A stretch of DNA of 57,100 nucleotides, filler included, from Jimgerdemannia flammicorona (Eukaryota), in assembly GCA_003990765.1 (NCBI GenBank). It is 4 parts of 4 records of this genome, joined end to end, with 100 filler letters (N's around TTAATTAATTAA, not from the genome) between each part and the next. Parts side by side here need not be neighbours in the genome. Positions count along the whole stretch, not along the records: positions 18,288 to 36,474 come from RBNJ01002273.1; 3 more parts are not named here. One strand, given 5' to 3'. Position 1 is the first letter of the stretch. Each line of letters begins with the position of its first letter. Positions 16,301-43,050 of this stretch are shown piece by piece. The position numbers and the translations under genes are program-made. The notes under the pieces are model-generated. The model did no database searches. It saw nothing but the letters and a program-made list of their open reading frames with translations, and was not told where the DNA came from.

Positions 16301-16401
16301 TCATCACCGCAATCGCAGCACCAGCAGCAACAGCAACCAAACGCCGCCCGGCGTCAGCAGCAGCAACAGCAGCAGCAACAGCTGCCGCAGCAGCCGCAGC
16401 C

Positions 16402-16440
<39 letters not shown>

Positions 16441-18187: not shown

Positions 18188-18287
18188 NNNNNNNNNNNNN
18201 NNNNNNNNNNNNNNNNNNNNNNNNNNNNNNNTTAATTAATTAANNNNNNNNNNNNNNNNNNNNNNNNNNNNNNNNNNNNNNNNNNNN
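18188..18287. other. Artificial contig linker
   Basis: N44-TTAATTAATTAA-N44, a six-frame stop spacer. Confidence 0.98.
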
Positions 18288-18800
18288 TTTTATTTTAATA
18301 TTTAATATTATTAAGAACTACTTATAAAATAATTGAAATTAATAAAAAGAAGTATGGTAATTCAGAAAAGGCAGCTTTATTTTTCACACTAGCAGAATTT
18401 CTTTAACTGATATTTCTGAAAATATTTTAGATGAAATTTACAAATTTCTATATCTAATATAAAAAATAATTAGTAATAAAGCTCTTGCTATAGTATTATG
18501 ATTAGAGAAGGGTAAGACAGTTTCTGACTTAAAACTACAGAATGTTACTATTAATTTTTTACTTATTATCTAGTACCTTATAGATATATTTTCTATAAGA
18601 ATATTTATAATGCTAAGCTTCTTAGTCTAAAATACTGAACGATATTTTAACAACTTTTTAGTAAAAATAGTTTTGGGATTTATCAAAGTCATAAGTTAGT
18701 AGAAATACTACAAATTCTTCAAATAAAAGAAAAGAGAGAGATAAACAAATATCACCTAGCATTCAATGAATTGTTGGAAAGACTGAGAGATTAGTATTTT
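18288..18800 (+). mobile_element. Possible highly decayed hAT transposase C-terminus
   Basis: Only a TERYFN...GFI-like remnant resembling the hAT dimerisation ERxFS motif, in very AT-rich, stop-riddled DNA. Confidence 0.25.
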
Positions 18801-19241
18801 AAAATAGAAGAAACTAGAAATATCAGACATACTGACAATTTTGTAAATATCTTAGCAGCTACTTTAAATCCTATATTTATAACTTAAGATAAATAGTCTT
18901 ATTATCTTCTATTATTATTTATTTTATTTTTACAAGATTTTTTTTTTTTTTTTTTTTTTTTTTCTATTTTATAAAATTAAATTCACAACTATCTCTAATT
19001 ATAATAAGTAGCAAATTGATAATTTATAAAAATAATTCTAGTAATACTGAGTTATAATAATATATACTTTAGTAAATTCTCTTTCTTAGGAGTTTACTAA
19101 AACTTGATAGTATCAGAAATTATTTTTAGAAATTATCAATTTGCTAGCTTGCTTATTATAATTGAAGTCTCATAATAAGAATAGTTGGAAATTTAATTAT
19201 ACATCATGATATCTGATGTAATAGAGAGTAGATTATTTATA

Positions 19242-19389
19242 TTTACAATAATAATAATAATTACATTAGCTCATACACTAGCCTCATATATTAGTCTCTA
19301 GTATATAAACTAAATATAGGCTAATTAAACTAATATATGAGCTAGTATATAGCTGATATATAGTCTAATATAATTATTATTATTGTGAA
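19242..19389. repeat. ~148-bp foldback (imperfect inverted repeat), MITE-like
   Basis: ACAATAATAATAATAATTACATTAG...CTCATATATTAGT is mirrored by ACTAATATATGAG...CTAATATAATTATTATTATTGT. Confidence 0.6.
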
Positions 19390-22300
19390 CATTTCTTAGT
19401 ATAGAATAATCTATAGGTTTACTTTATATATATATATCAGAGTTATGAATATAGTTCAAACTAAAACAAAGTCTCTAAGGTAAGAACTATTATTCCAGTT
19501 GGTTTCAGTATATGCAGTATAGTTTCAGTTCAATTTATCAATTAGCTAGTTTATCTCAGCTTACCTCAGTAGTAGTATACTTAGTTAGTATACCTCAGAG
19601 TATCTTTTATTTACCACAAGGTATCTCTAGGCTAAACAATAGCTGAATAATAGCTTAGCATCAGTATTTTATATAATATTAGTCTTTAGTAGTAGCTCTT
19701 AAGCTATTTTTATACACTTTATATAAGTATATATATATTCTCTATTTACTACTCTTAAGGCTTTTTACTAGTATCAGTACTGATCTCATCTCAGATATAT
19801 TTACAAATTCCAAATACTGCTAGTTTATATATATTATAGAAGAAGTAACTTATTGTACTTTATTATAAGCATTATTTGTCTATTAATAGTATCAAAATAT
19901 ATTGATCATATATCTCAAAGACTCTCATCTACTACCTACTCCTATATTCTCCATAACTCTCTCTATTAATGATATATTAATTGAGTGTCTTCTTCTGGCT
20001 ATTATGGTATACCTGGCAGGTAACCCTCCTTTGATTCTGATGTTTATATCTTTAGCTATTTTCTTCATAATACTATTTGGCCCAGTCCTCAATACTCTAT
20101 AACCCACTACTATGCTCTCTACTATCTTATCTAGTATACTGACCATTACTTTACTAGTGTATCATAGTGAGTCTCTGTCATCCTTTATCTTAGATATAGT
20201 TTTATGATATGACTGGGTATCAGTAGATCTGCTGGCTTCTTTAGATACTGGAGACTATCAAATCTTAGCTGAATAGACTGGCTCCACCTTAATTTCACAG
20301 GTTAACATTAAGCAGAAGTCCAACTATCTCTCACCTAATTGTGATTTAGACCTCTTTCTCTAACTTGAGGCTCTTTTCAATATTCAGAGCACACTCTCAG
20401 CCCTAGGTACTATGAAACTAATAACTTATATATATAGTATATACTACTCAACTTCTAGCCTATACTATCTTCATTATTAAAATATTTAATAACTGTTATA
20501 ACTGGGTCACTTTGTAGTATTTTGACTGACAGGTCCAGACCTTGAAGGCTTTCTTCCCAGAGCTGGACATCAGTAATCCAGAGGTAATTTGATATATATT
20601 TGAGATAGTAGTTAGTTAATCAATAGCTACTCTAGTTGTATTTTAGTTAACCTATTATTATAACTCTATAGCTTTACTCATAAGCTCTAAAAACCAGTCT
20701 ATATATACTCTCTTGTGCTTTTAGTATAGAGTATAGAGATACTTATCTACTTTCTACACTCAAGTATCCCTTCAACACCTAAGATTTACTATCAAACTAG
20801 ATAATCTCCTATTATATAATAGTACTCTTAGCTCTATCTGTCAAAACTTCAATAGTTATAGCTATTATAGTAACTATGATAGATCTCATATCTATATTTT
20901 CTACTATAAATCTCATATAACCATAGTATGTTCTGCTTGCTACAACTAATCTTACTATCTCTCTATCCACTTCCAACTCTTGTACTCTCTATTACTTAGA
21001 GATCTAGTATAGTGCTCTATACTCTCATTCTGACCAGTCACTTATTTAGTATTACCTAACTGGCCTTTAAAATAGCTACTTCTATAGTAATTATTTATAT
21101 CCAGAACTTCATATAAACCTCTTATCTAATAATCTCTCTTCTGCTTTTATCAACTAAGTAGTTCTCTCTGATAACATTTTGATAAAACTTGTCACTAATA
21201 GTACCTTGACTCCTTTCTATCACTCTTTACTCTCTCTTTTGAATTCTGCCTCTTTTACAATATCTCTCTGAGTATTATTCTCAAAAAATATCTACTAAGC
21301 TCTATACAATTCAACATCTATTATTCTCTGAGAGTACCTCTATCAATAATGGTATTAACTCTGAGAAATTCTCTATCTAATATCAATCTATTTAGAAAAT
21401 CATCCAGCTTCTCATCTTTATTAGTTCTACTACTCTCTTCTGGAAGATCAATGTTGCTGATATATTTTGCATTATTCCTATTTATTAATCTGACTGGACA
21501 ATATAGAGCATCTGCTGGCTTGGTCTATTCTTCCTTAATATATATCTCCCATTGGCCTATATTCTGCTTCTTTTTCTTTATCTTTATCTTACTTATAAAT
21601 CTCTTTATATATATATACTACTAGCTATATAACCTTTCTAATTTATCTATATATCATATATCCACTTCTATACTATTGCTGCTCAGTTTGATCTTTCACT
21701 CAAGCTCTCCAAGAACATTCCCCCCTTTCTAACTATTGAATATATAAATTTTCTACTAGATATCTCTACTATAACTATCAGCCTTTTTATGAACAAATGT
21801 GAGTACATCTTTGTAGTCCTTGCTGACTGGCTTACTCTTTTCAATAATGCTCACTGTCCTTACCCATGTCTCATCATAAGGCTTAGTTACTATAAGGTTA
21901 TTTAATATATATTATTTAGATCTTACCTAATGGAAAAGTATTTTGTAATTCTATTATCTACTTTGCTATAGTATAGAGGTCTCTATATATTAGATATCAC
22001 TATCTGTTCAACTATCTCATTATCAACTTATATTAGTAATAAGACATATTGTACTTATGGACAGATTATTGCCTGCTTTTCTATTCTAATTGGTTTAACT
22101 ATAGTCTCTTTATAGATATATCAGACTCTCTCAGTACTGGTATCTGGTTTGATTAGTACTGGTGAAGTGTTCATTGAGTCTCTTTCTTTTTTGACTCAGA
22201 CAGATATGATATCTTTTAGAAAGAGATATTCACTATCTGAGTTTCACTTATACTCTGGAACCCATCTCTCTACTCTCATCAGATCATCTTATAGTATAAT

Positions 22301-23836
22301 AGCCAACCCTGTATTAATTCTTTAACCAGGAGTTATGCTTCTCACTATCCTCTCATTAATGACCTCCTTTGCTAGATTGTTATTCTTTGTCTTAATCTTG
22401 GCTTTGATATCTAAGCCCAATATATCTCTTCTGAGTCTAATCCTGCTGATTCTTTATTCCATTTTGTATACCTTCTAATCTATTTACAGGACTCACTTTC
22501 ATCCCAGGTAGTATCTCTCTTTGACTTTACAATTATCTTGATACCTACTTATATCAGTATACCTATATCTATATCAGTAGTATCTGCCCAGAAATTAACT
22601 CTCTTCTCTGTTTTCTTACTATTTGCCATATCTCCAAACTAGCTGCTTTTCTACTGACTGATGATCATTTTAGTTATTAGACTTTATAGTTAGCTAATGA
22701 GAGGAAGTCCCATACAACTATTAAGAATTACTTCTATAATCTTACTACTTATTAAACTTATTAAGTAGCTCACTGGTGGGACTCAGCTCTATAGTATACT
22801 AATGTACCATTATTTGACATTGTCCTTAAGAATATTACTGCCAACTCTCTCTAGACACTCTATCTCTGTAATATCTGCCTATTATCTATTAATATCTTTG
22901 GTAGGTCTGATACCATTTATATCTCAATACTTCATTCAGTATGATGGTTTGAGCTACTACCTGCATAGTATTCTATAGTCTGATGAGAATAGGTAAATTA
23001 ACAATCCAGAATAGTTAGGTATTTAACCTGTCCTATCAGATTTATCATCATTACCTTCAATACTACTGAGACCATTCCCTCACCTATCTATTCTAGTCAA
23101 TTTATCTATTCTATACAAAGATAGGTTTAGCTAGTAAAGTGTTTTTCAGGTTCTCTGGAGTCTTTAATTACTCTTACTTAGCAATTGATCAGATAGTTCA
23201 GGCTATATCAGTTTAATCTAATAATTCTGCCTTCTGTTTAAGGCTTATATAGCTCCTGTTTATATGACCTTTATTAATACTATCTAGTTTGTATTATCTG
23301 GCTCTGTCTTGATATCTGGGATCCACAGTCACTTCTTTTATATTAGTAGTACTACTCTTATGACAGCTGCTGGCTATTTTGATTACATTATTCAACTGGC
23401 TGGCTACTGGAAATCTTCTGTCTTTCTGCACTATATTCATCAACTTAACTATCATTCTTTACATAATGTCATATAGTAGTTGCTAAGTTCTTTAAATATG
23501 CCAGATTCTCTTCAAGGTGTATCTCTTAGACTAACTCAAGTTTGTTATAAGCAAGTTCTTATTGGAGTACCTTTCCAAGGTCTTATAGTCCTCAAACTTC
23601 TTATCTTTAAACTATCTTGTTATCTTTTAGATTGCTTGCAAGGAAGTGTATATATTGCACTAAGTAGACTAAATAGACTGACTTTATTTCAGAGGAAATA
23701 AGAGGAGTATTTATATAAAATATAATTCAATAATTGCTAAGATATAAAGCTAAATATAAATTCCAATAACTAAAATGAAATGCTAGGACAAAAAAAACTG
23801 CTAAGTTCTAGGGTCAGTACTAATAGTTATACAGAT

Positions 23837-23969
23837 TCAGAATACTGGTATAATTCAGTATTACATCAGAATGCTGGTACTGGTATAACTCAGTATTATA
23901 TCAGAATGCCAGTGCTGGCATAACTCAGTGTTACATCAGAATGCCAGTACTGGCATAACTCAGTGTAAC
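23837..23969. repeat. ~35-bp tandem repeat (about 4 units) inside the LTR; also at ~32377-32507
   Basis: TCAGAATGCCAGTACTGGCATAACTCAGTGTTACA-like units. One unit contains the 16-bp palindrome ATGCCAGTACTGGCAT. Confidence 0.85.
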
Positions 23970-23978
23970 CAAAGAACT

Positions 23979-24785
23979 TCAGAGTAGAATGTTCAAGACC
24001 ATAGGGGCTTCATTCTTGTCATCACTGAAGGAGATAAGATCTGCAAATTTATCATTATCATGCATTTTGCATGCTTCAATATCATGCAGAATGACATCAT
24101 TGCTGATGATGTCATCACATTCAGTAGTGATAGGAAGGAGGTCTGGTGCTCTCCAGTCTATGAGGTTCTCTTCTACAAAATAGGGGACAAATGTGGGGTC
24201 TTAGGGAGGTCTAATCTAGATGCTTGGGCCTTGAAATACTGAGATCAATCCTTGCAGGAATTGGTCTGGGTTGTCCTGGAGGATGGGATGCCAGAAGTCT
24301 TCTACTTCATCACTATTGAGAGTGATAGTGGACTGGGCTTCTATAGCTACCCTGGTTTCTAGTGTATTGATATAGTGAGATGACAGATCTCTGAAATCTG
24401 AGACTCTAATATACTCTAAGTTAGGGATCAACCATGGTATATGTCTGAAGATCTGATGGATCTTCTTAGCTGTCCTTGCTTCATATATATCTATAGAAGT
24501 GGTATCTTGTAACTCTTGGGGGCTGGTCTGTGGGAACTCCTGGCAGAGGAGATTTTCTATTTCATACTCCTGTCACATTTGGAGATATTCAGTAGCAATG
24601 GTGATCCTTGTTTCCATTTTATGGTGGTAGAGAATATAATGATAAGGGTCACTAGTATCTAGGTTAACACTAGGAGTCCTTCTTGGGCAGGCCCTCATGG
24701 CTCTTCTGATGTCTTGGAATATTCTTTCTTCAACTGAGATATCTTGGTGGTTTCTTGATCTTGAGGTTTGGCAAGCAGCAGGCAT
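23979..24785 (-). pseudogene. LTR-encoded ORF of unknown function (~268 aa); second copy at ~32518-33330
   Basis: The track ORFs 24573-24785 and 24216-24431 and their continuation to 23979 are all in one frame with three internal stops. The other LTR is open across two of them (track ORF 32518-33033). Confidence 0.75.
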
Positions 24786-27700
24786 TTCATTTGTAGTAAG
24801 TCTTTGAGCTATTTTAGAATTGGTGGGTCTTGTTGGTTGCTACTACTGTGATTTCTTAATCCTTCTTTTATATTCCTCAAGATATCTGAACTGTGGTCAC
24901 AATGACTCACAGTTGGTCATCATTGCTCATCTCATATACTGTATGATCTTCTTGTATTCTGATCTGGTGGCTTATAAGAAAAGGCTGTCTCTTGTGCTGA
25001 TATCATTATTCTGGGGTCACCATTACATCTTCCTCCTGAATAAGAATCTTCTCAAGTGTCCTTATTTATTAGTCTAGTCTTGAAAAATTTGCTGATCCCA
25101 TAACCTCTGACAAGGGGTCGAAAAGTAGTATTTATAGACTGGTATCTTCTCTATATATTTTGGTATAATAGTGAAGAGTCACTCCCTTCATATAGAGTAA
25201 GGGTCTGATTCTGATCTTGACCAATCAGTTGACAGTTTGAACTTCTCTAGCTTTGAAAGTCTCATGGATGAGTAGTTGCTAGTACTGTATCCCTTAGAGA
25301 ATGGTCCAGACAGATAGTCTGCTGGTTATAGAACATACTGTTATGATTTATAGACTAGAACCTCATGAGTGGTTATTACATTTTGCTTCTCTTATATAGG
25401 TTTGTGGTACTTCTTGAGTCTATTCCTATACACCATGGTAGGTAGTATGGTCTCTGAGATTTTTCTAAGCCAGAAGGTAGTTTTCTTGATATCTTGTATA
25501 TAGAAGGGTTCTTCCCATTTGGGCTCCAGTTTTTGTGACCATGAGGCTTCTACTATATTTCGATATAGTAGGACCTTTTCTCTAATTTGGATGGATTCTA
25601 GGGTCTTGTGATTCTTTTCTGCATTCTTCCTTATCAGTGCTTGTGACTTGATGATATAATCTTCAGCCTTCTTCCTGATTTGGTGTAGTCTCTAGATTTC
25701 TGCATTGACCTGTCTTCAAGTTAGATCTAGATTTGTGACTGAGATTCCATCAGAATCTTCTTCTCTAAAGAGCAGTTCCCTTGGGATAAAGTGTGTGCTC
25801 TGTGACAATATGTCTCATAAAACAGAGAGGGCAGTTGGGAGATAATTATCCCAATTCTCATATGTCTCTGAGATCTTTGCCAGGATGTTTTTGAGGGGTT
25901 TGTTGGTTCTCTCTATCTGTCCATTTTCTTGAGAGTGGTATGTAGTGGTCTTGATGTGCTGGATCTTATATTTCTGATATATTATCTTATAGAATCTATT
26001 GACAAATTCTATGCCATGGTCTGTTGTGATTTGCTTCAGTGTCTTGTAGTGGCAGATGATTTCTCAGTATAGGAAGTTAGCTATAGAGAGGGCATTGGCT
26101 TCTTGTAATACTCCTGCTTCCATCCATTTGGTAAAGAGGTCTATAATAACTATAATATAACAGTTTTCTGATAGTGTTACTGGTAGTAGTCCAATGATAT
26201 TCATTGCAATGTGGTGGAAGAGGATAGGCTCAATTCTTGATAACTCAGATACCTGGTATTGCTGATCTTATTTCTGTTTTTGGCACTTGTCACACCCTTT
26301 GACAAATTGGTATAGGTCTTCTTCCATCTTAGGCCACCACATGGTTCTTCTTGTCTTGTTATATGTATTGATTCCTCCTAGATATCCTTACTTGTGTACT
26401 TCCTTCATTACTTGATACTTTTTGTGTTTGGATATTACTAGTTTTTCTTCTTTTCTGAGTGTAGTGTTGTCTAGTTCAAACTGTTTCCAAGTTCAGTTGA
26501 TGATGGTGATTGTCCAGGGTTCAAGGTGGTTGGGCATCTTCTGCTGCCCAAGATAGCTGATTAATCCATAGTATAACTCCTTATTCATGTTAAGTAATCT
26601 TGATAGGAGTGTTTTGGAGTATTCTTGAGAGTGCATCAGCATTGGTGTTGGTTCTTCCTGAGTAGTGCTTGACAGTACAGTCATACTCTTACAACCTGTA
26701 GATCCATCTGGTATATATTCCTTTGGGGTTCAGAGTGTGGAATAGCCAGGCAAGAGTAGAATAGTCTATTTGAATGGTGAAGTATTTCCTGGCTAGGTAG
26801 TAGTAGAACTTGTCTACTGCCCAAACTACTGCTAAGCATTTGAGCTTACATGACTCATAGTTCTGTTCTGCTCTGTGGGTACCTCAGCTTGTATAGGAGA
26901 TAACATATTCATATCTATCTTTCTTCTGAGCTAGGACTGCTCCAAGTCCTATAGTACTCGCATCTATCTGCAGGATGAATTCTAGATTCCAATCTGGTCT
27001 TCTGAGGATAGGTACTTGGGTCAATCTGATCTTGAGTTCATTGAAGGTTTTTTGGCATTCCTTGGTCCATTCGAATTTGGTTTCCTTCTTCAGTAGCTCA
27101 TAGATAGATACTGCAATATTGGAGTATCCTTTGATAAATCTTCTGTAGTAGCTGGCCAGTCCAAGGAAGGCATGGACTTCTGTGGTCATTCTGGGTCTCA
27201 GGTAGGCTACAATAGCCTTAATCTTCATAGAGTCTGTGTGGATTCTGGTCTGATTGATGAGGTATCCTAGATAGGCAATTTCTTGAGTTACAAACTTGCA
27301 TTTCTTGGGCTTGATGTAAAGGCCATACTCCTTGAGCTTCTTGAGGGCTAGCTGTATATGATTGATATGTTCTCATGCAGTATTGCTGAAGATAATCACA
27401 TTATTAATATAGACAAAGAGCTATTTTCCAATCTCATTGCTGAAGGCTCTGTTCATCATTCACTGGAAACTTGCTGGGGTATTATACATTCCAAATAGCA
27501 TTTGTAGGTAGATATAGGTGGTATCAGGTATGATGAAGGCTGATTTCTCACTAGCATCTTGAGTGAGACTAATCTGATGGAAGCCTGAGAACAGATCCAA
27601 GGTGGTATAGTATTTGGCTTCACTTTTAAGGGTGGTAAGGATTTCTTGAATATTTGGCAAGGGCTGCCTATCCTTCTTGGTAATGGCATTGAGCTTTCTA

Positions 27701-28084
27701 TAGTTAATGCAGAGTCTTGGTACAAACTCTCTAGGCTTGCTTCCTTTCTTTGGGGCAAGGACAATGGATAAAGCCCAGAGACTGATAGCTTGCTTAATAA
27801 TTCTAGCTTCTTCCATTTCCTTGAGTTCTGCTTGCAGCCATTCTCTGTAGACAGGTGGTATGGATCTGACTTTCTGATAGATGGGCTTGGTATCACCAGT
27901 GTCAACTTCATAATAGTACTTGGGTTCTTGATTGTAGATATCCCTGAAGTCTATAGCAAGTACTCCTTCATTCTGGTACAGAATCTTGAGAAGTTATTCT
28001 TCCAGAGGAAAGTTTTTTCCAATAGTATATGTGTGCTTGTTCTGGTCCTTATCTTTCTTGTGCTCAAGTTCAGTAATTTTGATA

Positions 28085-28520
28085 GTAGCATAGGCTCCTC
28101 TTCCAGTAGATCCAAAGTCTTATTCTCCTCTCTTAGTCTTGATGAGTTTGATGGCTTCAGTGATCTTGGGTTTCTTGATTTCATGGATCAGCATCTGGCC
28201 AATCCTATCATGCTTCTTGACTTTAAATGGAGTGGTGAGGTTGTAATTCCTGACTATGAGAAAGATCTTACCAATATAATCAGGGTCAATTACTTCTCCT
28301 TTAACTGAGATTTCACTTTTGGCCAGACTGCTTCTAGTCTTGATAATTCCAGCATAGTTCTCTGACAGCTTGACTTCAATTCCAGTGCCAAGTAGGGTGG
28401 TGATCTGTGGTTCAAGGGTAGTATCTTGAATGCTGGCAAGGTCCATTCCTATAGCTCCTTCAGTCTTGTATTCTAGGGTCTTGGCTTTAGGATGGAACTT
28501 CTTGACCTTAAGAGTGATAT
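28085..28520 (-). pseudogene. dut: dUTPase domain in pol of element A, between PR and RT
   Basis: All five trimeric dUTPase motifs: AIGMDL, KTRSSLA, VIDPDY.G, DRIGQM and TKRGE*DFGST. Confidence 0.92.
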
Positions 28521-30473
28521 CTAGTTCTTGTTCTTTATCATTATCACTGTCAGCTTGAAGCTCTGGGGGCTGGTCATCTTCTTCAGCTTTCCTTTTTGCT
28601 TTAGCAGTTTCTTGCTCATGTTTCTATTAGTGGATTTTCCTGACTTCACTGATACAGGACCAGCAGTCATTCAGGTGTTTAGAGTAGTACATCCTAGTAC
28701 CATAGGGGCATCTTCCTTGAGGGGCATAGCCATCGATAATCTTGTTGTACCACTGCTCATCTGTGAGCTTGGGTGTCTTGTTCTTGTTCTTGTTCTTGTT
28801 CTTGTTCATATTCTTATTCACTGAGTGCATGAAGACCTCTATGTCCTCTTTATCTCCTTTCTTCATATCTGGTAGGACTCCTTTGTAGACATTGATAGAG
28901 ACTTGTACCTTTCTTCCTCTATAGTTAATCTGCATCTTCTGGACATTGAGGTCAATGATGGCCTTGGCCTTATAAAGCCATTGGTTGTCAATGAGGATGT
29001 TATAGTTAGTGGTGCTTGTAACAATTACATCTACTGGGATTATAGCTCCTCTTATCTTGATGGAGACTTCTTGGATTTTGCTAAGGGGGATAGCTTGTAT
29101 ACCATCTGCTATATCTTGGTAGACTCTTCAATGTCCCAACCTAGGCAGTCAATTGTCTTCTTGCTTATGAGGCATCCTCCAGCACTGGTATCAATGATGG
29201 CATCAAAGATACAGTCTTCAATCTGATATGGGGTATAGACTGATGTCTTGCACTGGTCTTCAGATTCTTTATCTGAGTTTTCAGATTCTTCCTGTGCATT
29301 GTGAGCTTCTACAATCTTGTACTCTTGATTCTTGGCAGTAGTTGCAAGTCCTACTCTCAACTGCTGTCTGAAGGCAGGAACTTCAGCTAGCTGTCCAAAA
29401 GTAGCATTGACCTTCTATTCCTTGAGGTCCTTGTAGATATCATACTGATGGATCTTGGTCTTGCACAGCTTCTGTTCCTTCTTGCTTTCACTTTCTCCTG
29501 AGACTGGAGTAGTATTTTCAATGATTTGGCAGGTAGCTTCATCTAACTCTATGTCTTGATAAATCTCCTTAGGTTGAGTCTTACTTTGAATAGTGATAGC
29601 TGTAATCTTCTTTGGTCTTCCAACTGGCTTACTATTGCTCTTCTTATCATAGAGCTTGGACTGGGTTCTGGTATCTTCAGTAGTAGAGTAGAATTCAAGC
29701 TTCTCATAGTATTCTTCATCATCAGTATTACCAATCTCCTCAATGACTACTACATTAGTTTATTCTCTGGTTCTGCTAGCATTGCTTGGTTGGGCTTTGC
29801 ATCTTGTTTTGGTTATGCAATTCTTTGTATAGTGGTCTTTTTCTTTATATCTGAAGCATGTGATATTGCATTCTTTTGTAGCAACTGTAAATCTCTGCAC
29901 TGGTCTCCTGTTGGTACTTCAGACTTCTCTAACAACATCATCAAGGTGTGTAGTCATCTCAGTAAACTGCTTGGTAAGTTCCTCCACTGGGTTGGCTTTG
30001 GCTGTCTTAGGGATAGGTGGGATTGATTGTCTGTTTACAACTATAGCAAGTATGATACTAGTTGGCTTTGATGGCTCTATCTTAATACCAGTTATTTTCT
30101 CCATTGAGTGTTCAGCAGGGTGTCTAGTAGTTCAATATATCTGTGTAAAGACCACTTTCTGATCAAGGGTTAGTACAGCTAGAGTAAACTGGATTGTTAG
30201 GGTAATTTCAGAGTGAACTCCTTTGAGGAAGGTTGAATCTACTATATGTTCCTTGAGGGCATCATCATAGCCAGCCAAGATAATCTAGTAGCAGATTTGG
30301 GTATAGAATGAGTTGGGATCTTCACTAAGTCTCTGACAGATAGTATTGAGTTGATCCTTGAGAGCTTGTTTGATCTCTTCAATATAGTATGTTGTTCTGA
30401 GAAAGGCCTTCATATTGGCAAGTTTGGCTGTATCATTATTAACAATAGTGGCTATATTGAACTTATCTCTGGC

Positions 30474-31723
30474 TTGGGTGGTGAAGAGGCTGACAAAGGT
30501 GGCTAGGGATTGGATTTGGACAGGGAGGAGGTCCCAGATCAGTTGGGACACTCTTGTAAAACCAGTGGTCAGGGGAGGTCTTGGCCTTGTGGATTCCCTA
30601 AGAGATTGCACTGCTTGTAAGCCTGGTGGTTGAAGAGAGTGGCTGAACTGCAAGGAGGGGGTTGGGTATCTCTATTACAGAAGGTGTGGGAGATGAGGAC
30701 CTCCCCCTGAGGGTCCTCAGGAGATCTGCTCTCTTTGGTAGGGCTCAATGGAATCTGGAGGCTGAGGTTTAAGGGCTTTTGGTGGGGAGTAGTTGATGGG
30801 GCGCACAGGATTGGTCTGTACTGGCAAGGCAATGAGGGGGAGGTATTGTGGGGACCTAGTATGTGGCGATGGGATAGACTGCTACTGGGGGGTACACTAC
30901 TTGCTGCTTTCGATATTGGGGATGGAGTGGAGTGTCAGCAGGGTCTTGGCCAGGATCTTTGGCCAAGCAGTTGGCAGGCAGTTGGGATCAGCGAGGAGTG
31001 GAACTGAGCAGGTATCTGGTCTTGGAGTGCTGAGGTATGGCAGTGGCTTCCCCCCAAGTTCTGGGTGGTGTGGTGGTGAATGCTGCAGAGGAATTTCATG
31101 CTGAATTTCCACACTGGGCATCTGGTAGATAGTGGCTGTTTCAATTGTGAGGAGTGTTACAATGTAGGGCAAGCTGGGGGTTTAGTGCAGATACCAGAAC
31201 ATTGGCTGGGAGAGTGTGAGGTTTTGGGGGACTTTTGGGTTAAAATAGGGAATAGACTGGGTGTGGAGCACAGGCCAGTAGGTGAGGGGGATCGCTGGGA
31301 GGACTTGAGATCTCAGCTAGTGGGGGGGGGTGAGTGATAGTTGGCTCACTATTGGGTGGGTGTTAGCAGTTTGGGTAGGATTGGCAGGACATTGGCTATT
31401 TGTGTTTGAGGAGAGGTGGCAGATGGGACTACAGGAGAAGGTTTTAAGGTGGGAGGAGCTGTTGGGGGATCTGATGACTGGATGGTGGATAGGTTGGAGT
31501 TCTTCAGGGGGGCAACAGTGAGGTTTGGTGGCAAGGATATGCAAACAGAGTGGTGGGAGGGTGGGAATTATATTCGATAGAGTGGTGTTTTATTGAGAAA
31601 AGGTAGGGAAGAGGGGCCCCCCTAGGGAGATTGGATAGGGGGTGGGTTCACTATACTTATATGAGATAGATGGGCATAATAAAGGAAGAGTTCAAGTGAC
31701 TATAAAAAAAAAAAAAAAAAAAA
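30474..31723 (+). mobile_element. 5'-truncated L1/Tx1-like LINE inserted in gag of element A
   Basis: ORF2 C-terminal remnant (GGLGLVD; C..C..EH...EC), AATAAA and poly(A) at ~31703-31723. A 15-bp TSD GAACTTATCTCTGGC lies at 30459-30473 and 31724-31738. Confidence 0.92.
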
Positions 31724-32005
31724 GAACTTATCTCTGGCAGGTTCTCTGAGGCTAACTGGTAGAAGGGCTAATTGTACATCTATACCAAGAGCTCATATGG
31801 TAGCAAATTGTTCAAAGTCTTCAATGAAGGTCAAGATTGACTCTTAAGTAGTATATCTATAAAATGTGGGGGGATACATTTCCATCTTATCTTGAATTCT
31901 TACAGAGGTGACTCTTGTAGTCAGAGTAGTTGTTGTGGGAGTTGTTCATTTTTTAGCTTGAAAGTGAGGGATTTGTCTTGAATCACCAGCCAATAGGTAC
32001 CAAGT

Positions 32006-33570
32006 TGTCATATAGTAGTCACTGAGTCCTTCAAATATGCCAGATTCTCTTCAAGATATATCTCTTAGACTAACTCAAGTTTGTTATAAGCAAGTTCTTA
32101 TTGGAGTACCTTCCCAAGGTCTTATAGTCCTCAAATTTCTTATCTTTAAACTATCTTGTTATCTTTTAGATTACTTGCAAGAAAGTGTATATATTGTACT
32201 AAGTAGACTAAATAGACTAACTTTATTTCAGAGGAAATAAGAGGAGTATTTATACAAAATATAATTCAATGGTTGCTAAGATATAAAGCTAAAAATAAAT
32301 TTCAATAACTAAAATAAAATGCCAGGACAGAAAAAACTACTAAGTTCCAGAGTTGGCACTGATGGTTATATAGGTTCAGAATGCTGGTATAATTCAGTAT
32401 TACATCAGAATACTGGTGCTGGCATAACTCAGTATTACATCAGAATGCTGGTGCTGGTATAACTCAGTGTTATATCAGAATACCAATACTGGCATAACTC
32501 AGTGTAATCAAAGAACTTCAGAGCAGAATGTTCAAGATCATAGGGGCTTCATCCTCATTGTTACTAAAGGAGATGAGATCTGTGAATTTGTCATTGTTAT
32601 ACATTTTGCATGCTTCAATGTCATGTGGGATGACATTATTACTAATGACATCATCATATTCAGCAGTGGTGAGAAGGAGGTCTGGGACTCTCCAGTCTAT
32701 GAGGTTCTCTTCCACAAAATAGGGGACAAATGTGGGGTCTTGGGGAGGTCTAACTTGGATGCTTGGGCCTTGGAATACTGAGATCAATCCTTGCAGAAAT
32801 TGGTCTGGGTTGTTCTGGAGGATGGGATGCCAGAAGTCTTCTACTTCATCACTATTGAGAGTGATAGTAGACTGGACTTCTGTAGCTACTCTGATTTCTA
32901 GTGTATTGATACAGTGGGATGACAGGTCTATGAAATCTGAGACTCTAACATACTCCAAGTTGGGGATTGACCATAGTATATGCCTGAAGATCTGATGGAT
33001 CTTCTTAGCTGTTCTTGCTTCACATATATTCATAGGAGTGATATCTTGTAACTTTTGAGGGCTGGTCTGTGGGAACTCCTAGCAGAGGAGGTTTCCTATT
33101 TCATACTCCTACTATATTTAGAGGCATTTGTTAGCAATAGTGATCCTTGTTTCTATTTTATAGTAGTAGAGGATACATATAATGATAAGAGTCACTAGTA
33201 TCTAGGTTGACACTAGGAGTCCTTTTTGGGGGGGTCCTCATAGCTCTTCTAATGTCTTGGAATATCCTTTCTTTGACTGAGATGCCTTGGTGGTTTCTTG
33301 ATCTTGAGATTTGGTGAGCAGCAGACATTTCATTTGTGGTAAGTCTTTGAGCTATTTTGGGATTAGTGGGTCTTGTTGATTACTGCTACTGTGGTTCCAT
33401 AATCCTTCTTTTATATTCCTCAAGATATCTGAACTATGGTCACAATGACTCACAGTTGGTTATTATTACTCATCTCATATGCTATATAATCTTCTTGTGC
33501 TCTGATCTGATAGCTCATAAGGAAAGGCTGTCTCCTGTGCTGATGTCATCATTCTGAGATCACCATTACA
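32006..33570 (-). repeat. 5' LTR of element A
   Basis: Colinear with 23467-25027, with the PBS-like sequence adjacent at ~31990-32002. Confidence 0.95.
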
Positions 33571-33956
33571 ATAACTACTATACTTACAATACTGTTCTTC
33601 TCAGTACCTTCATGGGCCATCAGTTTGGCTGATGGTGATTAGACATTATCCATGAGTAGTTAATGAAATCTGATGACATCTTAACTACTCTCTAGACCTA
33701 TAATATTTGGCCTTCTTTACTATAGACAAGGGTGGATCTAGGAAGCATATATATTATCTAGCCAAAACTCAATACTTGCCTTGTTACTTGCTTTGATGTT
33801 CATTTTTCTTTTTTTTTTACTTCTCTCTCTTCACTTTATCTTCCTTACTTATATTTATACATTCAGTATACCTCTCCCCTCTAGTTTCCCTTTTTTGGCA
33901 GTACCTATCTATAGTATACTCAGAGACATTATCAGAGTTATGAATGTAGTTCAAAC

Positions 33957-34100
33957 TAGTGCTCCCAAATGAATCAAATATATTCAAATTAAATTGAATT
34001 GAGATTGATTCGAATCGAATAGAAATGGAGATTTTCATATTCAAATTGAATTCGAATCAAATCAAATTTGAATCAAATTGAATTAGAAGTTCGATCAAGG
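33957..34100 (+). mobile_element. Decayed hAT-like DNA transposon terminus with GAATC-type subterminal repeats
   Basis: TAGTGCTCCCAAATGAATC resembles TAGTGCTCCGAACGAGTC at 54323 and is followed by repeated (T/C)GAAT(C/T) motifs. Confidence 0.5.
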
Positions 34101-34126
34101 GTCTCAATTTATCACACTTAACACAT

Positions 34127-34280
34127 GCTACAAAAATTTTTATTGCCAAGTAACCAAAATTCTTTTTATTGTCTACCCCCCTATGCCTATAATAGTCTAC
34201 TTCCTACAAAAATTTTATTACCAAGTAACTGAAATTCTTTTTATTATCTATCCTCCTGTGCCTGCAATGGTCTACTTCCT
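34127..34280. repeat. ~77-bp tandem duplication
   Basis: CTACAAAAATTTT(T)ATT.CCAAGTAAC..AAATTCTTTTTATT...TCTACTTCC occurs twice. Confidence 0.8.
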
Positions 34281-35039: not shown

Positions 35040-35141
35040 TATGAAGGTTATTAGCAAGAGAAATGTTTTTTTTTTTTTTTTCTTTTCTCACTATTAGAGA
35101 CAACTTATTTATACATTTTACCTAATACCATAGCCATAGCC

Positions 35142-35355
35142 ATATCCGAAGTACCATATCTGAAGCTCTTGGCTACATATGTGTTTGAAGCACCACCTAA
35201 CTATATATATTCAAAGTATCACTATATCCGAAGTGCCACCATATCTGAAGCTCTTGGCTACATATGTTCGAAGTGCCACCATATCTTAAGCTCTTGGCTA
35301 TGTATGTTCAAAGCACCACTATATCTGAAGCTCTTGGCTATATATGTTCAAAGTA
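35142..35355. repeat. ~40-bp tandem repeat, about 5 units
   Basis: CATATCTGAAGCTCTTGGCTACATATGTTCGAAGTGCCAC-like units. Confidence 0.85.
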
Positions 35356-36574: not shown

Positions 36575-39500
36575 CTTCATCCTTATGGAAGCTCTGGACC
36601 CTCTAGGAAAGACTGGATTCAATTACACAAGAAACTCAAAGACAGGAGCTCACTGGCCTTTCTTCAAACTGGAGTGCATGGACTTCTCACCTACAATGGC
36701 AACAGCTGAAGTGCCATTTCTCAAAGCTCAACCAATTATCCAGGTCAAGCTGCTTTTACTCTGAGCACAGCCACCTCTTGCACAAACAGAAGGATCAGTT
36801 GGTTATGACCTCTGCCTCCCCTACCAAGCAAGAATCTGACCCAGAAGTACCAGGACTTTTGACCTACAGATTGCACTCACTATACCACCTGGGCATTATG
36901 GACAATTGGTCTCAAGATCTTCATGGGCAACCAAAGGAGTCACAGTAGAAGGAGGAGTCATCGATCAGGACTACCGAGGTCCCTTGAAGGCCATTATCCA
37001 CAATTCTAGTAGAACCAGCCAATTCTTCAGTTCTATGGAAGCCATCTGCCAAATCCTGTTTATCAAGACATCACAGCTGACCATCCAAGAGATAGACTAA
37101 CTAGAAGATACCAACAGAGGACAAGGAGGCTTTGGAAGCACCAATAGAAATCTACAGACACCACCTATCAAGGTTCATTTAGCAATAGTTGCTCAATTCT
37201 GACAAATGAGACCCCATATCTACTGCCCAATCCGAGTACAAGATATCCTCCTGCAGCCCTATCAGCAAAAAGGCCTAGATGTGTACCTACTAGTAGAAGC
37301 AAACAACTTAATATTTGCACCATTACTGAAGCTTCAAAAGGAGTACCACATTCTCCTGGCTGAAGAACGAATTCATGACCAAATGTCACCAATCCATATC
37401 CCTATTAGAAACTTGGGCTTCAAAGTGATAACTATCCCCAAGGGAACAACACTGGGATATTTCGAACCACTGATAGACATCTACGAGGAAGAAGTCTTCA
37501 AATTCTTGGGAAATGGCAAGCCCTCTCCAGTGAGACTAACAGTACCAGGGAGGAAGACTTAGAAAATTCAGCAATCAAAGCCATCGACATCGAGACAACT
37601 CTAACCAAAGACCAGCAACAACAGATACAGGAGTTGATAGAGGAGTACAAAGATATATTTACCACCACATATGATAACTTCCCACCATATCAATATAGAG
37701 AACACCCTATATATACTGGAGATACAAGACCAATCCGACAATGACCCTACTGAACACCATATCATCTGATTGAATTCGAACAACAACACATAGATGAAAT
37801 ACTATGAAATGGAGTCATCAGACCATCATCAAGCCCCTGGGCTTCACCAGCAATCATAGTACCAAAGAAAGGAGGATGGAGATTAGTCATAGATTTCAGA
37901 AAACTCAACAAAGTCACCACAGAAGATGCTTACCCACTGCCAAGAATTGATGACCTCATCAATGCTCTCAGAAAAGCCAAGTACATGACCACTACCAACC
38001 AGTTCCAAGGATTCCAAGTAATATTCATTGCCAAAGAAGATATCTGCAAGACGGCCTTCATCACCAGATTAGGACAGTACGAATACCTACAAATGCCCTT
38101 TGGACTCTGCAATGCATCTGCCTCATTCCAACAAATGATGAACTATGTCTACTGGGACCTCATTGGAAGAAATGTACTAGTGTACATAGATGATGTAATT
38201 ATCTACTCTGAGACATTCAAGCAGTATTTGCAAGACCTTCACAAAGTATTCAATACCATTCGAAATTCAGGACTCAGACTCAATGCCAAGAAGTGCTTCT
38301 TCGAAAAACATCAAGTCAAATATCTGGGATATGTTGTCTCAGCTCAAGGAACATATGCTAACTCCCATAAGGTGGAGAAAGTCAAGAACTACCCAACCCC
38401 GACCTCAGCAAAGGAGACCCTATCTTTTCTTATGCTGGCATCCTACTATCGACGATTCATCCCAAGGTTTTCAGATAAAGCAGTACCTCTCTGAGATATC
38501 TCCAAGAAGGACCAACCATTCTACTAGAAAGAAGAACAACAAAAGTCATTTGACCTACTAAAGAAGGCCCTTATCAAAGCCCCTGTCCTGGTGCAACCAG
38601 ACTTTGGCAAACCATTCATCCTGGCAACTAATGCCTCAGCCTTAGAACTTGGATCAATTCTGTCTCAGCAAGATGACCAGAAGAGGGAGCATGTTATCGA
38701 ATATGCTAGCAAGGCTACAAATGAAACACAAGTGAACTATGGAGCCACTAAGTTGGAATGCCTAGCAGTAGTTTGGGCTGTGGACCACTTCTGACACTAT
38801 CTCTTAGGAAAGAGATTCACCCTCATCACTGACCATCAAGCTCTATAATAGTTGTTCAACAAGCTGGAGCCCTCAGGAATCTTTGCTAGATGGATTATGT
38901 CTCTGCAAGAATATCAGTTCACTATTGTCTACAAGAAAGGTGCTAAGAATTCCAACGTTGATACCCTGTCAAGAATCCCGCGAAACCAACAAGAAGGGAA
39001 GGAGCCCCCACAAGAGAAGGCTGCTTTCCGCTCACCCAAATGAACCAAGAATTGCACCTCGCCCTCACCTGGAGTCTGCACCATAGAAGCTTCAAGAAAG
39101 GAATCCAACCAGCCCACAAGTTGTTTATCCAAAGGAATTTCAAGAAATTCCAAGAAGGTGATGGCAAACTTTAGAGAGTAGAAGGAAAGCAGTACACCCG
39201 AGTTCTAAGAGAAGAAGAAATATTGAAGATCCTGACAACAAATCATGACCAAAATGCACACTGAGGAATTGGTGCCATAATCGCAAGAATCAAGAAGTGA
39301 TACTAGTGGCCCAAGATGAGAAAACAAATTTTAATGCACATTCAACAATGTGATACCTGCCAAAGATACTGACAAAAGCCTACTGATAGAGCACTATTAA
39401 TACTGATCGCAGTACCAGCTGGAGCCTTTCAAAGACTAGGAATAGACATTATTGGACCCCTATCAGTAATCAGCCGAGGAAGATACTATATCCTCACTAT

Positions 39501-41110
39501 CGAAGACCACCTGACAAAATGGCCTGAAGCCTTTGCCATTGAGACCACCAATGCCCAGACAATTATTGGGATCCTGTATGATAAAATTTTCAGCCGCCAT
39601 GGTGTGTCCAAGGAAATCATTACAGACCAAGGCTGAGAATTCGTCAACCAAGCCATGAAGACCTTTGTGAGCAACTTCAAGATCAAGCTATAACCAATAA
39701 CATCCTACCACCCACAGGCAAATGGACTCACTGAACGAATGAACCAGACCATCAAGTGAGGTCTCAGTAGAACCAGAGATCAACTAAACTGGGATATCTA
39801 TCTATTGGCAATTCTGTTCAGCATCTGTACCTCTAAGGCAACCGCTATCTAACAGACCCCCTTCTATTTGGTGTATAGCCAAGAAGCACATGATCCTACT
39901 GAACCAGTTCAGCTAGATCTGTTGAAATGAGTCACAGAAGAGATCACTCAGTTACATGGCATATGCCAGCAAGCATGAGGATTTATCGCCAAGATATAAG
40001 AACAACAAAAGAGGTACTATGACTGCAAAGCTGACCTCGAACCCCTGCTCATTGGACAAAAGGTTCTGGTGTACCATACCATCATAGAAGGAAACTGGAG
40101 TGCCAAGCTTGAACCAAAATGGGAAGGCCCCTATCTTATACACCAAGTATTCTTGAACCACACTTATCAACTCAAGACCTTGGATGGAGTTATACTCAAG
40201 ACCAAGATATACCGCAACTGTATAAGACTCTACTACTCAAGAGAAGCAAAATACATTTGAACAATCCTGTTCACTCTGTTTGTGTTGTCTCTGTTGGAGA
40301 TATGACGGACGTTTCACTCGAAACTCAAGAAAGCCAACAATGTTGGAACCAGACTCAAGCCCATCCATGTGACAGACATTGTTACTAAGAAATTGCCTTG
40401 GATTACAAGAAATACTATTTCCAATGGGTTCAAAACCCCAGCTGCAACTATGGGAGCCCTCGCCCTAGACAAGGATGGCCAGTCCTCACAAATGCGCTGA
40501 CATTCTGCTTGTCCCTGGAGTTAAGACCACCCAACTCTGTGTAACCTTCACCACCGAGGATGGCTCTAATTTTACAAGGGGCAGATGTGATGTCTACAAT
40601 CGACCCTGTCCAAATTCAGAGTACCCTGTAACCACAAGATCAGATGACATTATGGCATGATAACTGGTGATCAGCCCAATCCATCAAGTAATTTCACCAA
40701 AAGAAAACAAGATGATCCGAGCCAAAATGAAGACCACATTATTTAAGGAACCATACTTCACCTCAGGGATCAGCACCAAAGAACCAAGTACTCACCATAC
40801 AATGCCTCCCATTCGCTGATTCAACCAGACCTCCCACCACTCTACCCCTTTGCCTGGCCCAAAGACCCTGATCTTTGAAGCTATCAAGAAGGCCATCTGG
40901 CACCCAGATACTTTCGAACACTTGAACTTCTATACCGAGGACCTTGGACACTTCATCAACTACTAGTATATAATGACCCAACAGCTCAAAGACACTACTG
41001 AATGAATGACCCTCTGGCATGACTATGAAATCGGACACGGCCTTCGCAATGAGACTCAAGAAGATGACCGGGAAGACCTCATTACCGAATTGATAACCAC
41101 TAGCCAGCTG
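36575..41110 (+). mobile_element. Ty3/Gypsy element B, partial: dUTPase-spacer-RT-RNaseH-IN plus extra 3' coding-like DNA; no LTR seen
   Basis: SSPWASP, VIDFRKLN, YPLPRIDD, MPFGLCNA, YIDD, ASYYRRFI, ECLAVVWAV, ITDHQAL, GIDIIGP, YHPQANGLTER and LEPKWEGPY. Confidence 0.93.
36735..37145 (+). pseudogene. dut: dUTPase domain of element B
   Basis: GSVGYDL, GQLVSRSS, GGVIDQDYRG, ICQ and NRGQGGFGST. Confidence 0.93.
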
Positions 41111-41114
41111 ATCA

Positions 41115-43050
41115 AGAGAGCTCTCCACATTCATTAGATATTCCACCTCATCCCCTGGGCCATAGCACACTTGCAAGGAGTAACAGCTGGCAGTCTTGCC
41201 CATCTCTCAAATGAAGATGCAGACTGGATAGAATCAGAAGTAGCCAACTCTACTGGTAGCAACTGGGTCACCTCCTCCAGTAAAATCATCAGAATCTCCA
41301 CCTTCAGTGCCTCTACCATTCCATTACCATGCAGAATCCTCGCCCAATGCTCCTCAGGCATCACCCACAGGTCAACCTCCCCTAAAGCCTCTGCTGCGAG
41401 ATTGTCCATCACCTTGTACATCCACAATAAGTTCCCCACCTCCTTCCCTCCCGGGGTCTCCGGTCACCCTGCATCCAATATCATGGTGTCAGCCCCTACA
41501 CTAGCAGCCTCATCCCACTCCTCCTCAGGGACATCCACCAGCTCATCCTTGCCAACCACCACCACCTGACCCCCTTGTGCCATATCAGGGACCCCAAAGT
41601 GCACCTGCTGGGTCCTCTGCATCCGTGTATCCACTGTCATCCCTCTCTTCCCCACTGGGCCCCTCCTGATAAGTGGGGGGGGGGGTGGCATCCAGCTCCA
41701 GCTCCCACACTTTGAAGGTACCATCAACAAATGGGTCCTTGACCAGTCTCTTCTCAGCCCCTGTCTCCTTCACCTCCACCTCCTCTCCTCCTTTATCAGC
41801 CCAGACACTGGCCTCAATACCTCCAGACTCCTCAACTCCACCCAACGTCTTCTTCCCCCCACCTATCATACTAGCCAATAGCTCCATCTGCCTCTTGCAT
41901 CTCTGGGCCCGCTTCCACTGCTTCTTATCCATATAGATATGCCTACCACCCACAACCTCCAGATGCATTGACTCCTCAAACAGTTTCCAGGCCTTTGCCC
42001 TCCTCTCCACAGCACCACCCAACTTCTCCAGTACCTCCAACAAGTCCTCCTCCTCCTCTTCACTCCCTTTCACCCTTGATACCTTGCAGACGACAGCCCC
42101 CCACATCAGCACCGAAGGCCAGTCACTTGTCTTCCCTGTGGCCTCCTTGCCTGCCAGCCGAATCCTGTCATCAACATCACCTGTCCTGATCATGGTCCCC
42201 TCCCACACATGAAAGCCTATGTCTACCACATCACTGTACTCTACCATCACCTCCTCTACCCTCTTCCTAGTCTCCTCCTTAGTCACTGTGGGTACTCCCC
42301 TCACTAGGAGCTACACCACCCTGGGGTCTCACCTCAAGCACTGCACCATGGGTACCACTATCTCTCCAACCACAACTCCAGTCTTCAGGGCCTCATCCAG
42401 TGGGCCCGCTTCCTCAAAACCCACCTCAACCCCCTCCAAGCCCTTCAAGAACTTCACTGAGGCTGCCCCCTCCACCTGCTTCGAAATTAGCCCCAGAACC
42501 ATCTTCACCATCACTGCCAAGCCCCAGAAGCACAAGGTGACTGTGAACTCTGAAATCGACTTCTTGAGTAACAGGGCCACTGCCAGCCCCATTACACCAT
42601 CTGCCAGGTCCCTCTTCCACATCGGGAACCCCTGCTCCCCCTGGCCATCAGCTGTCACATCTCTTTTTTTCTCCTGATTTGCTATCATGCTACCATCAGC
42701 AGTCCCGCCACTACCCCCAGTGGCAGCTCCACTTCCACCACCTCTCCTTGGTGAAGGCCCAGCTCTCATGTCAGCCTCATCCTTCTGCTTCCCCTTCCCT
42801 CCTGCCTGACCACTACAGGATCCTGCTGGCCAACCCCCAGCCCTCAGCATGTCCGCAAAGCTCCTTCCCTGCTATCTTCCAGCCCCTCCACCAGTGCTAC
42901 TTCTACTCCCCAAGCTGTCCTGCCCACCTGAGCCACCAAAAGACCCTATCCCCAGTCCATACCCTCTCCCGACATGCTGCCAGTTGAAGGCCCCAGGTCC
43001 GCCTAACCTAGTACATGCATCGGCTTGCTTGCTGATTGATATTTCCTTAA
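41115..43050 (-). mobile_element. Probable LINE 5' part (ORF1-like), GC-rich
   Basis: In-frame ORFs 42329-42850 and 41585-42304 (V.MRGVP...YSDVVDI...IRTGDV..WPSVL) resemble the L1/Tx1 ORF1 RRM region. The G-rich coding strand matches the LINE copies in this window. Confidence 0.6.

Follow-up and report, generated by a model that had tools for sequence, protein, structure and literature searches.

Evidence for a conserved protein-coding gene inside the long terminal repeats of a dUTPase-bearing Ty3/Gypsy lineage in Jimgerdemannia flammicorona

The long terminal repeats (LTRs) of a Ty3/Gypsy retrotransposon of Jimgerdemannia flammicorona (GCA_003990765.1) very probably carry a real, conserved gene of their own. 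The retrotransposon, termed element 1 here, lies in the window, that is, the whole stretch of 57,100 nucleotides analysed in this study, which is joined from four parts of the genome; positions 18,288 to 36,474, which include element 1, come from RBNJ01002273.1. The first-pass annotation of this DNA had proposed an accessory protein-coding gene inside the Gypsy LTRs, and this proposal is upheld by intact relatives of the predicted protein, by a collinear copy in a second element, by codon bias and by the loss of all stop codons upon reversion of C-to-T changes. The gene was intact when element 1 inserted, and both of its copies were later broken by C-to-T hypermutation, so that element 1's own gene copies are dead. 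We also regard as probable, if slightly less so, the main explanation developed below, namely a genuine accessory gene of ~270-340 codons in the LTR of a dUTPase-bearing Ty3/Gypsy lineage; its placement in a U3 region and a role as a regulator are more tentative.

Element 1 is a complete Ty3/Gypsy retrotransposon on the minus strand, forming a 10.1-kb unit at positions 23467-33570. Self-comparison of the window yielded a single long direct repeat pair, 23467-25027 and 32006-33570, with 88.97% identity over 1568 columns and 163 mismatches. In minus-strand reading both LTRs start with TGTAATGG and end with TGACA. The sequence TGGTACC, resembling a primer-binding site of the TGG type, follows 3 nt after the 5′ LTR, the polypurine tract AGGAGGAAGA (25028-25037) is located directly upstream of the 3′ LTR, and a 4-bp TTAT target duplication surrounds the element (23463-23466 and 33571-33574). 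The following features were assigned.

32006..33570, minus strand: 5′ LTR of element 1, 1565 bp, TG...CA (pairwise alignment with the 3′ LTR)
23467..25027, minus strand: 3′ LTR of element 1, 1561 bp (pairwise alignment with the 5′ LTR)
25028..32005, minus strand: internal region of element 1, stop-ridden (Pfam on read-through frames, and sequence)
28485-28102, minus strand: dUTPase (Pfam on read-through frames)
27753-27262, minus strand: reverse transcriptase (RT; Pfam on read-through frames)
27069-26683, minus strand: RNase H (Pfam on read-through frames)
26429-25935, minus strand: integrase (Pfam on read-through frames)
near 25393, minus strand: pol stop (sequence)

In read-through frames of element 1 and of a second element (element 2, see below), the Pfam matches follow the Ty3/Gypsy order RVT_1, RT_RNaseH plus RT_RNaseH_2, Integrase_H2C2 and rve. 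The read-through translation of the gag region of element 1 contains C-x2-Y-x4-H-x4-C, which is one transition away from CCHC, and Pfam gave no gag match in this element at E ≤0.01. A Chromo domain was likewise not matched at E ≤0.01 in either element, which is weak evidence since both copies are mutated. Gypsy elements bearing a dUTPase are described for basidiomycetes (Postia, Phanerochaete) and the ascomycete Tuber (PMC2864245) and also for bdelloid rotifers (PMC5408684). The first-pass annotation had called the element fungal; this literature, the restriction of CpG loss to transposable elements and the presence of a DUF2433 gene in the window make this origin likely, short of proof.

Each LTR contains a sense-strand open reading frame (ORF), preceded by 242 nt of LTR sequence and followed by 512 nt.

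23979..24785, minus strand: LTR ORF, 3′ LTR copy, 268 codons plus terminal TGA, no frameshift
32518..33328, minus strand: LTR ORF in the 5′ LTR, interrupted by stops (codons 69, 71, 72, 82) and shifted by a 4-bp insertion

Upon re-reading, the 3′ LTR frame (24785-23979) proved to be exactly as first described, with 268 codons, no frameshift and three internal stops, namely TGA at codon 71 (24575-24573), TAG at codon 190 (24218-24216) and TAA at codon 195 (24203-24201). Also as first described, the latter two are Gln codons (CAA) in the 5′ LTR, and codon 71 is TGA in one copy and TAG in the other; intact relatives have W at this position. The description of a sense frame in each LTR holds as well, although it had omitted the three further stops of the 5′ copy (codons 69, 72 and 82, which are CAA or CAG in the 3′ copy) and its private 4-bp insertion near 33176-33179, which shifts the frame. 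Downstream of these lesions the 5′ copy is open for 186 codons (33078-32521; designated P0001). The other five frames of the ORF span contain 11-29 stops. When the 3′ LTR was shuffled with preservation of dinucleotides, none of 300 shuffles contained a 268-codon window with three or fewer stops (the lowest number being 6), and an open run of 186 codons was reached by none of 1000 such shuffles of the 5′ LTR. The frame can indeed be followed back to an ATG at 24935 across four more stops. This extension finds no support among the relatives, as all five that reach the N-terminus (P0004, P0008, P0009, P0012 and P0013) begin at a Met matching 24785 and not 24935. An out-of-frame ATG located 5 nt upstream of the ORF start opens a frame of 31 codons in both LTRs (24790-24695 and 33333-33238, minus strand).

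The two LTRs of an element are identical at insertion, and their differences therefore represent damage suffered afterwards. Column by column, 164 of the 170 mismatches of the pair are transitions. The observed/expected ratio of CpG is 0.03 in element 1 and 0.01-0.26 in other repeat-rich stretches, compared to 1.04 in the gene-bearing first 18 kb. Together, the transitions and the CpG loss indicate strong C-to-T/G-to-A hypermutation of repeats in this genome. Former CpG sites are recognisable in the LTR comparison as adjacent CA/TG doublets, each copy having lost the site on a different strand, and 12 CpG sites could be reconstructed from the pair. With respect to context, 107 of the 164 transitions affect C before A (the CpG-derived doublets included), 45 C before C and 12 C before T, a spectrum that differs from classic repeat-induced point mutation confined to CpA. 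Flanking the elements are two very AT-rich stretches (18300-23466 and 43000-45000; GC 0.29-0.35) with a CpG observed/expected ratio of 0.01-0.02 and an excess of TpA, which look like older repeats mutated past recognition.

All seven stop-bearing codons of the two ORF copies are a single transition away from Gln or, at codon 71, from Trp, and these are indeed the residues (Q and W, respectively) that the intact relatives show there. Reversion of the C-to-T changes, a check suggested in the first-pass annotation and applied here to the two LTR copies by taking C or G at each transition mismatch, removed every internal stop from the 268 codons. Moreover, it raised the identity to relatives, for P0004 from 184/265 to 200/266 and for P0002 from 192/245 to 205/245. 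Between the two LTRs, 31 codon differences are synonymous and 54 non-synonymous, not far from the 260:535 possible sites to be expected if transitions fall at random, which fits neutral decay after insertion. The 4-bp insertion of the 5′ copy is not the ancestral state of the family, because four contigs of the soil run X1 (depth 26.3 of 41) do not contain these bases, as seen among the variant places listed (40 of 1148). This run belongs to three soil-metagenome DNA runs of one study, which have word shares of 0.12, 0.02 and 0.00; it contains related contig pieces in large number (6242, of which 613 reach ≥99%). Near-identical words occurred in soil metagenomes only. The host is likely to be a soil fungus.

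Relatives of the predicted protein, about a dozen with identities of 27-79%, are present in large protein collections. With P0001 as query, six proteins at 63-75% identity were retrieved from 5.8 billion protein clusters, HMMER over 1.84 billion representatives returned five real relatives, including P0008 (47%), P0009 (38%) and P0011 (35%), and a profile search brought the total to 12. One further candidate of the HMMER pass, P0010, is a repeat protein that matched over 27 residues only and was rejected as a false relative. Even the relatives at 27-47% identity have E-values of 1e-21 to 1e-115. Three are full-length, namely P0004 (271 aa), P0009 (342 aa) and P0012 (325 aa). The N-termini share the start MP..R (MPAAR, MPALR, MPPIR, MPPTR, MPPTC), members of the element-1 type share the C-terminal end LN[FI]LL-stop, and the acidic tail shows several length differences, which are in frame. 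The 3′ LTR ORF scores 375 bits with a hidden Markov model (HMM) of the family and is 67% identical to P0004 over 272 columns by tblastn. Neither viral contigs nor genome contigs returned loci of the relatives, and the one locus returned from metagenome contigs, which gave a 30% match, was discarded as its ORFs look unrelated and phage- or bacterium-like.

The codon usage of the frame agrees with that of pol in the same element. A codon model derived from the element's own pol gave +0.17 (3′ LTR) and +0.13 (5′ LTR) bits per codon for the ORF frame and negative scores for the other two frames and for the non-ORF parts of the LTR, and the base composition of the ORF by codon position matches that of pol. 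A displaced fragment of ordinary gag or pol, which the first-pass annotation had named as evidence against a gene, is not what the ORF represents, as the family HMM run on the six-frame translation of the window matched only the three ORF copies and nothing in gag or pol.

The third of these copies belongs to element 2 (~36600-41300, plus strand), a less mutated Gypsy element with the order dUTPase-RT-RNase H-integrase. It is without gag and protease at its left end, which adjoins an N block, and its 3′ LTR is truncated.

36774..39714, plus strand: element 2 pol (dUTPase, RT, RNase H, integrase), protein ~32-47% identical to element 1
40802..41284, plus strand: LTR ORF homologue of element 2, first 161 of ~325 codons, three stops

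Its ORF is 73% identical to P0012 over 161 aa (tblastn, E 1e-74) and scores 117 bits with the HMM. The ATG is located ~545 nt after the pol stop (~40258) and 215 nt after a junction (~40587) composed of the polypurine tract AAGGGGCAGA and TGTGATG. Correspondingly, in element 1 the pol stop (~25393) is followed after ~366 nt by the polypurine tract plus TG (25027) and after another 242 nt by the ATG, and the two elements are thus collinear through pol into the ORF. At the protein level they match in pol and in the LTR ORF only, and blastn found one 60-bp match in the RNase H-coding part of pol. The proteins of the element-2 type (subfamily B), P0012 and P0013, are only 27-30% identical to the LTR copies of element 1. 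These comparisons place the LTR gene at an equivalent position, immediately within the LTR, in two anciently diverged lineages. It evolves faster than pol and is nevertheless retained.

Near 41.3 kb the LTR of element 2 is interrupted, its remainder being lost to an unrelated, strongly GC-skewed repeat of ~1 kb, which is present in five copies with 71-87% identity (30561-31599, 35427-36462, ~41400-43000, 47368-48679 and 55775-57088). One copy directly follows an RVT_1 domain (~46695-47325), so that the repeat probably represents the 3′ portion of a non-LTR retrotransposon, present as a nested fragment. In element 1, the sequence separating the primer-binding site from gag contains an antisense copy. 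A proline-rich stretch downstream of the 5′ LTR, considered as a leader of element 1, was rejected because it belongs to this repeat.

The short motifs around the ORF suggest how it could be expressed. The following features were found in both LTRs of element 1.

24865..24872 and 33408-33415, minus strand: TATAAAAG box, candidate ORF promoter, ~80 nt upstream of the ATG in both LTRs (pattern scan)
23843..23964 (5′ LTR ~32382-32505), minus strand: 35-bp unit in 3.5 tandem copies, just after the ORF stop (TRF, inverted repeats, alignment)
23715-23708 and 23688-23683 (5′ LTR pair 32254-32222), minus strand: TATAAATA, 19 nt, AATAAA (pattern scan)

In element 2, TATTTAAG is located ~60 nt before the ORF ATG. 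The junctions of the 35-bp units form 16-nt palindromes, a perfect one at 23941-23956, which makes these repeats candidate enhancer or response elements. The AATAAA at 23688-23683 is the only one in sense orientation in the LTR, the end of which is reached ~215 nt further on, and together with TATAAATA it may mark the U3/R border. U3 would then comprise ~1.34 kb from the LTR start to TATAAATA and hold the whole ORF, R would measure a few tens of bases and U5 ~200 nt. In some retroviruses tandem repeats precede the TATA box and the poly(A) signal lies near the expected start site, which keeps the signal out of the 5′ end of the RNA. By analogy with retroviruses whose R is very short, the AATAAA would be transcribed in the 3′ LTR only. 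The ORF could be read from the LTR's own upstream TATA (TATAAAAG) or from a subgenomic RNA; initiation at TATAAAAG would produce a short mRNA of ~1.2 kb from each LTR that ends at the common poly(A) site. Alternatively, transcription of the genomic RNA begins at the first TATA, which would put the ORF within a long R. Being contained entirely in the LTR, the gene has two copies in each element and one in each solo LTR. The suggestion made in the first-pass annotation that solo LTRs would also spread the gene is plausible in that it fits the TATA ~80 nt upstream and the poly(A) signal downstream, which are motifs only.

With respect to the protein, P0004 has a net charge of +8 in its first 60 residues, which are basic and rich in Arg, and of -21 overall; the full-length members range from -21 to -28 and possess a strongly acidic C-terminal half with bulky hydrophobic motifs. 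The most conserved block of the family is the Pro/aromatic sequence NPILQDNPDQFLQGL...F.GP.I, and a tail motif [DN]LI.F occurs once in members of the element-1 type and twice in P0009. Matches to clathrin-box, LC3-interacting region, nuclear export signal and di-leucine patterns are scattered and non-conserved and were dismissed; of the patterns, only [DN]LI.F is conserved. There is no hydrophobic or membrane segment, the highest 19-residue hydropathy in five proteins being 0.59-1.07. Structure prediction, another check suggested at the outset, gave two AlphaFold models with a helical core (P0004 residues ~56-160), a small hairpin and disordered ends, and no specific fold match. Foldseek returned nothing at E ≤0.001, and with VIA-align the best hits (Z 6.1) were generic helical hairpins only, both being weak tests with models of such low confidence. 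The best cosine in the ESM Atlas, 0.83, is below its 0.9 bar, and the Atlas's own model has a pLDDT of 0.35. Pfam contained no family for the LTR protein at E up to 10 or up to 1, and a profile search of the PDB gave 0 matches at E up to 10.

The combination of a basic terminus with a helical core and with an acidic tail in which hydrophobic residues are interspersed is typical of nuclear regulators. Because of this layout and of the adjoining palindromic repeats we tentatively favour a nuclear regulator of the element's own expression, that is, a transactivator or an RNA-export factor, as one possible function. For this reading there are retroviral precedents. Foamy-virus Tas/Bel1 and human T-cell leukaemia virus (HTLV) Tax are transactivators encoded at the 3′ end, which act on LTR repeats and possess acidic activation regions, and nef of human immunodeficiency virus (HIV) overlaps U3. 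As with Tas and Tax, a basic-N/acidic-C protein adjoins 35-bp palindromic repeats upstream of a TATA box. The protein has no similarity to Tas, Tax, Nef or Rev in sequence or, by the weak fold tests, in fold, and in contrast to the genes of Tas, Tax and Nef its gene is contained wholly within the LTR and does not straddle the border. A transactivator would act on the LTR repeats in the manner of Tas and Tax; an export factor would resemble Rev or CERV, the accessory protein of the nematode element Cer1. A more speculative extension, which we hold to be doubtful, is that the LTR constitutes a self-contained cassette with its own promoter, a transactivator gene, palindromic response elements, the genomic promoter and a poly(A) site. 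Every LTR, solo LTRs included, would then supply in trans a factor that activates all copies of the family, and, if true, a circuit of the Tas/Tax kind would have been invented independently in a fungal Gypsy lineage and been spread by its terminal repeats.

As to layout, the closest counterpart is sag, the superantigen ORF in U3 of the LTR of mouse mammary tumour virus (MMTV), the product of which is a type II membrane glycoprotein. It too is a complete ORF of a few hundred codons in an LTR of >1 kb, upstream of the TATA box and hence carried by both LTRs, and here a very short R would complete the likeness. Unlike Sag, the LTR protein is without a hydrophobic segment or a Pfam match, and MMTV is a vertebrate retrovirus, whereas the host here is probably a fungus. 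Features of the env-like ORF3 of errantiviruses and plant elements were not found either, the LTR protein being acidic (isoelectric point 4.5-5.9) and without a hydrophobic stretch.

Among Gypsy elements, Cer1 of C. elegans encodes CERV, which is needed for the export of unspliced genomic RNA (PMC10309623). Compared by description, CERV is likewise a family-specific Gypsy accessory protein without known domains, encoded besides gag and pol; unlike the LTR ORF, it is encoded in the internal region, where it is produced by way of a spliced mRNA, and the LTRs of Cer1 measure only 491-492 bp (PMC10309623). Additional, lineage-specific ORFs of varied or unassigned function comprise several ORF3 types in bdelloid LTR retrotransposons (PMC5408684), ORFs at the env position in plants (noted in PMC10309623), an 'add. 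ORF' in a survey of fungal Gypsy elements (PMC2864245) and the antisense brtn of the Botrytis Boty elements (cited in PMC8365987). As far as these accounts show, the extra Gypsy ORFs are not located in the LTR but downstream of pol and before the 3′ LTR, ahead of gag or in antisense orientation. Searches of part of the open-access literature brought up no description of a conserved gene lying entirely within the LTR of an LTR retrotransposon outside the retroviruses. Accessory genes of LTR retroelements are as such familiar; what sets this one apart is its unusual position and the unannotated protein family that it encodes.

Several observations weigh against this account or parts of it. The location in the LTR is shown for the two lineages of the window only and not for the outside relatives, which may stem from few related organisms; moreover, gene callers report open frames only, so that decayed relatives are invisible. 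Several relatives are incomplete, five of the seven proteins of the element-1 type beginning with an internal Met. The LTR of element 2 is truncated, and where it begins is deduced from the polypurine-tract-plus-TG junction. The out-of-frame ATG just upstream would compete with the main start codon, unless leaky scanning takes place or the transcript begins past it. The DNA is AT-rich and the TATA and AATAAA motifs are short, and the TATA pattern has 116 matches in the window. The confidence of the AlphaFold models is low (mean pLDDT 51, and 49 without the N-terminus), members of the element-2 type have acidic W/F motifs with [DN]LI.F being absent, and the functional reading is drawn from composition and analogy alone.

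That the frame is open by chance, or is a decaying remnant without any coding past, is effectively refuted. This view could appeal to the longest stop-free run of the 3′ LTR (118 codons), which is matched by 22 of 1000 shuffles, as stop-poor sequence stays open; yet the two main measures of openness were reached by none of the 1000 and none of the 300 shuffles reported above, distant relatives reach E-values of 1e-21 to 1e-115, and the codon model favours the ORF frame. We consider it very improbable that the LTR took up the ORF as a fragment of a host gene and carries it without function for the element. LTR retroelements do capture host sequence (PMC4299795, PMC5408684). However, the relatives are all of ORF length with a common start codon, and the frame is open and collinear in two lineages in which pol is only ~32-47% identical; relatives of 600-2000 aa, such as fused forms, were not found, which is weak evidence by the search tool's own note, and no parent gene in the host is visible.

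The remaining alternatives concern the function of a genuine gene. That the protein serves assembly, reverse transcription or integration, be it as a chaperone, an integrase-targeting factor or a host-factor adaptor, seems rather unlikely to us. The acidic tail with its short hydrophobic motifs (LISFE, [DN]LI.F) is typical of adaptor modules, and the gene has been kept next to integrase in two lineages; motifs this short nevertheless match by chance, the protein is without similarity to gag or pol, and Pfam gave no zinc knuckle or nucleic-acid chaperone signature. The first-pass annotation had instead thought of a possible anti-silencing role; such a suppressor would act against RNA interference, DNA methylation or the hypermutation machinery. 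A counter-defence would pay in a host that hypermutates repeats as strongly as this one does (CpG 0.01-0.26 versus 1.04), and with 6242 contig pieces in one soil sample the family is successful. On the other hand, no known suppressor domain was found and nothing in the sequence points there, and the element 1 copy and its neighbours are thoroughly mutated, so that any protection is partial at best; we therefore rate this role as improbable, below the one in assembly or integration, with the nuclear regulator standing above both.

LTRs are usually treated as non-coding promoter and terminator modules, and genes within them are textbook matter for a few vertebrate retroviruses only. A conserved LTR gene in a Gypsy element would mean two gene copies per element and solo LTRs that potentially code after the loss of the element, and regulation as in complex retroviruses would have arisen outside animals. 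LTR-based dating and annotation of transposable elements, which mask LTRs as non-coding, would miss such genes. Roughly a dozen 'hypothetical proteins' in public collections would gain an explanation, and the new protein family offers a target for studying the means by which a retrotransposon manipulates a host in which repeats are hypermutated.

In the rest of the window, no Rfam family was matched anywhere. The CpG-normal left part contains ordinary genes and, at 15971-16690 (plus strand), a DUF2433 domain (E 1e-25), which we take to be fungal; a weak match to EF-Tu domain 2 is located at 3316-3855 (minus strand). The positions 18188-18287, 36475-36574 and 54761-54860 are occupied by paired blocks of 44 N with 12 bases between them, which recur every 18,286-18,287 bases; by this regular spacing they look like deliberate masking and not like assembly gaps. 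A third Gypsy-like element with few stops (~52000-54100, plus strand) encodes a gag with an intact CCHC knuckle and an aspartyl protease, and it is followed by a direct-repeat array (54427-54745) in a ~14-bp register with self-matches at offsets of 70-98 nt.

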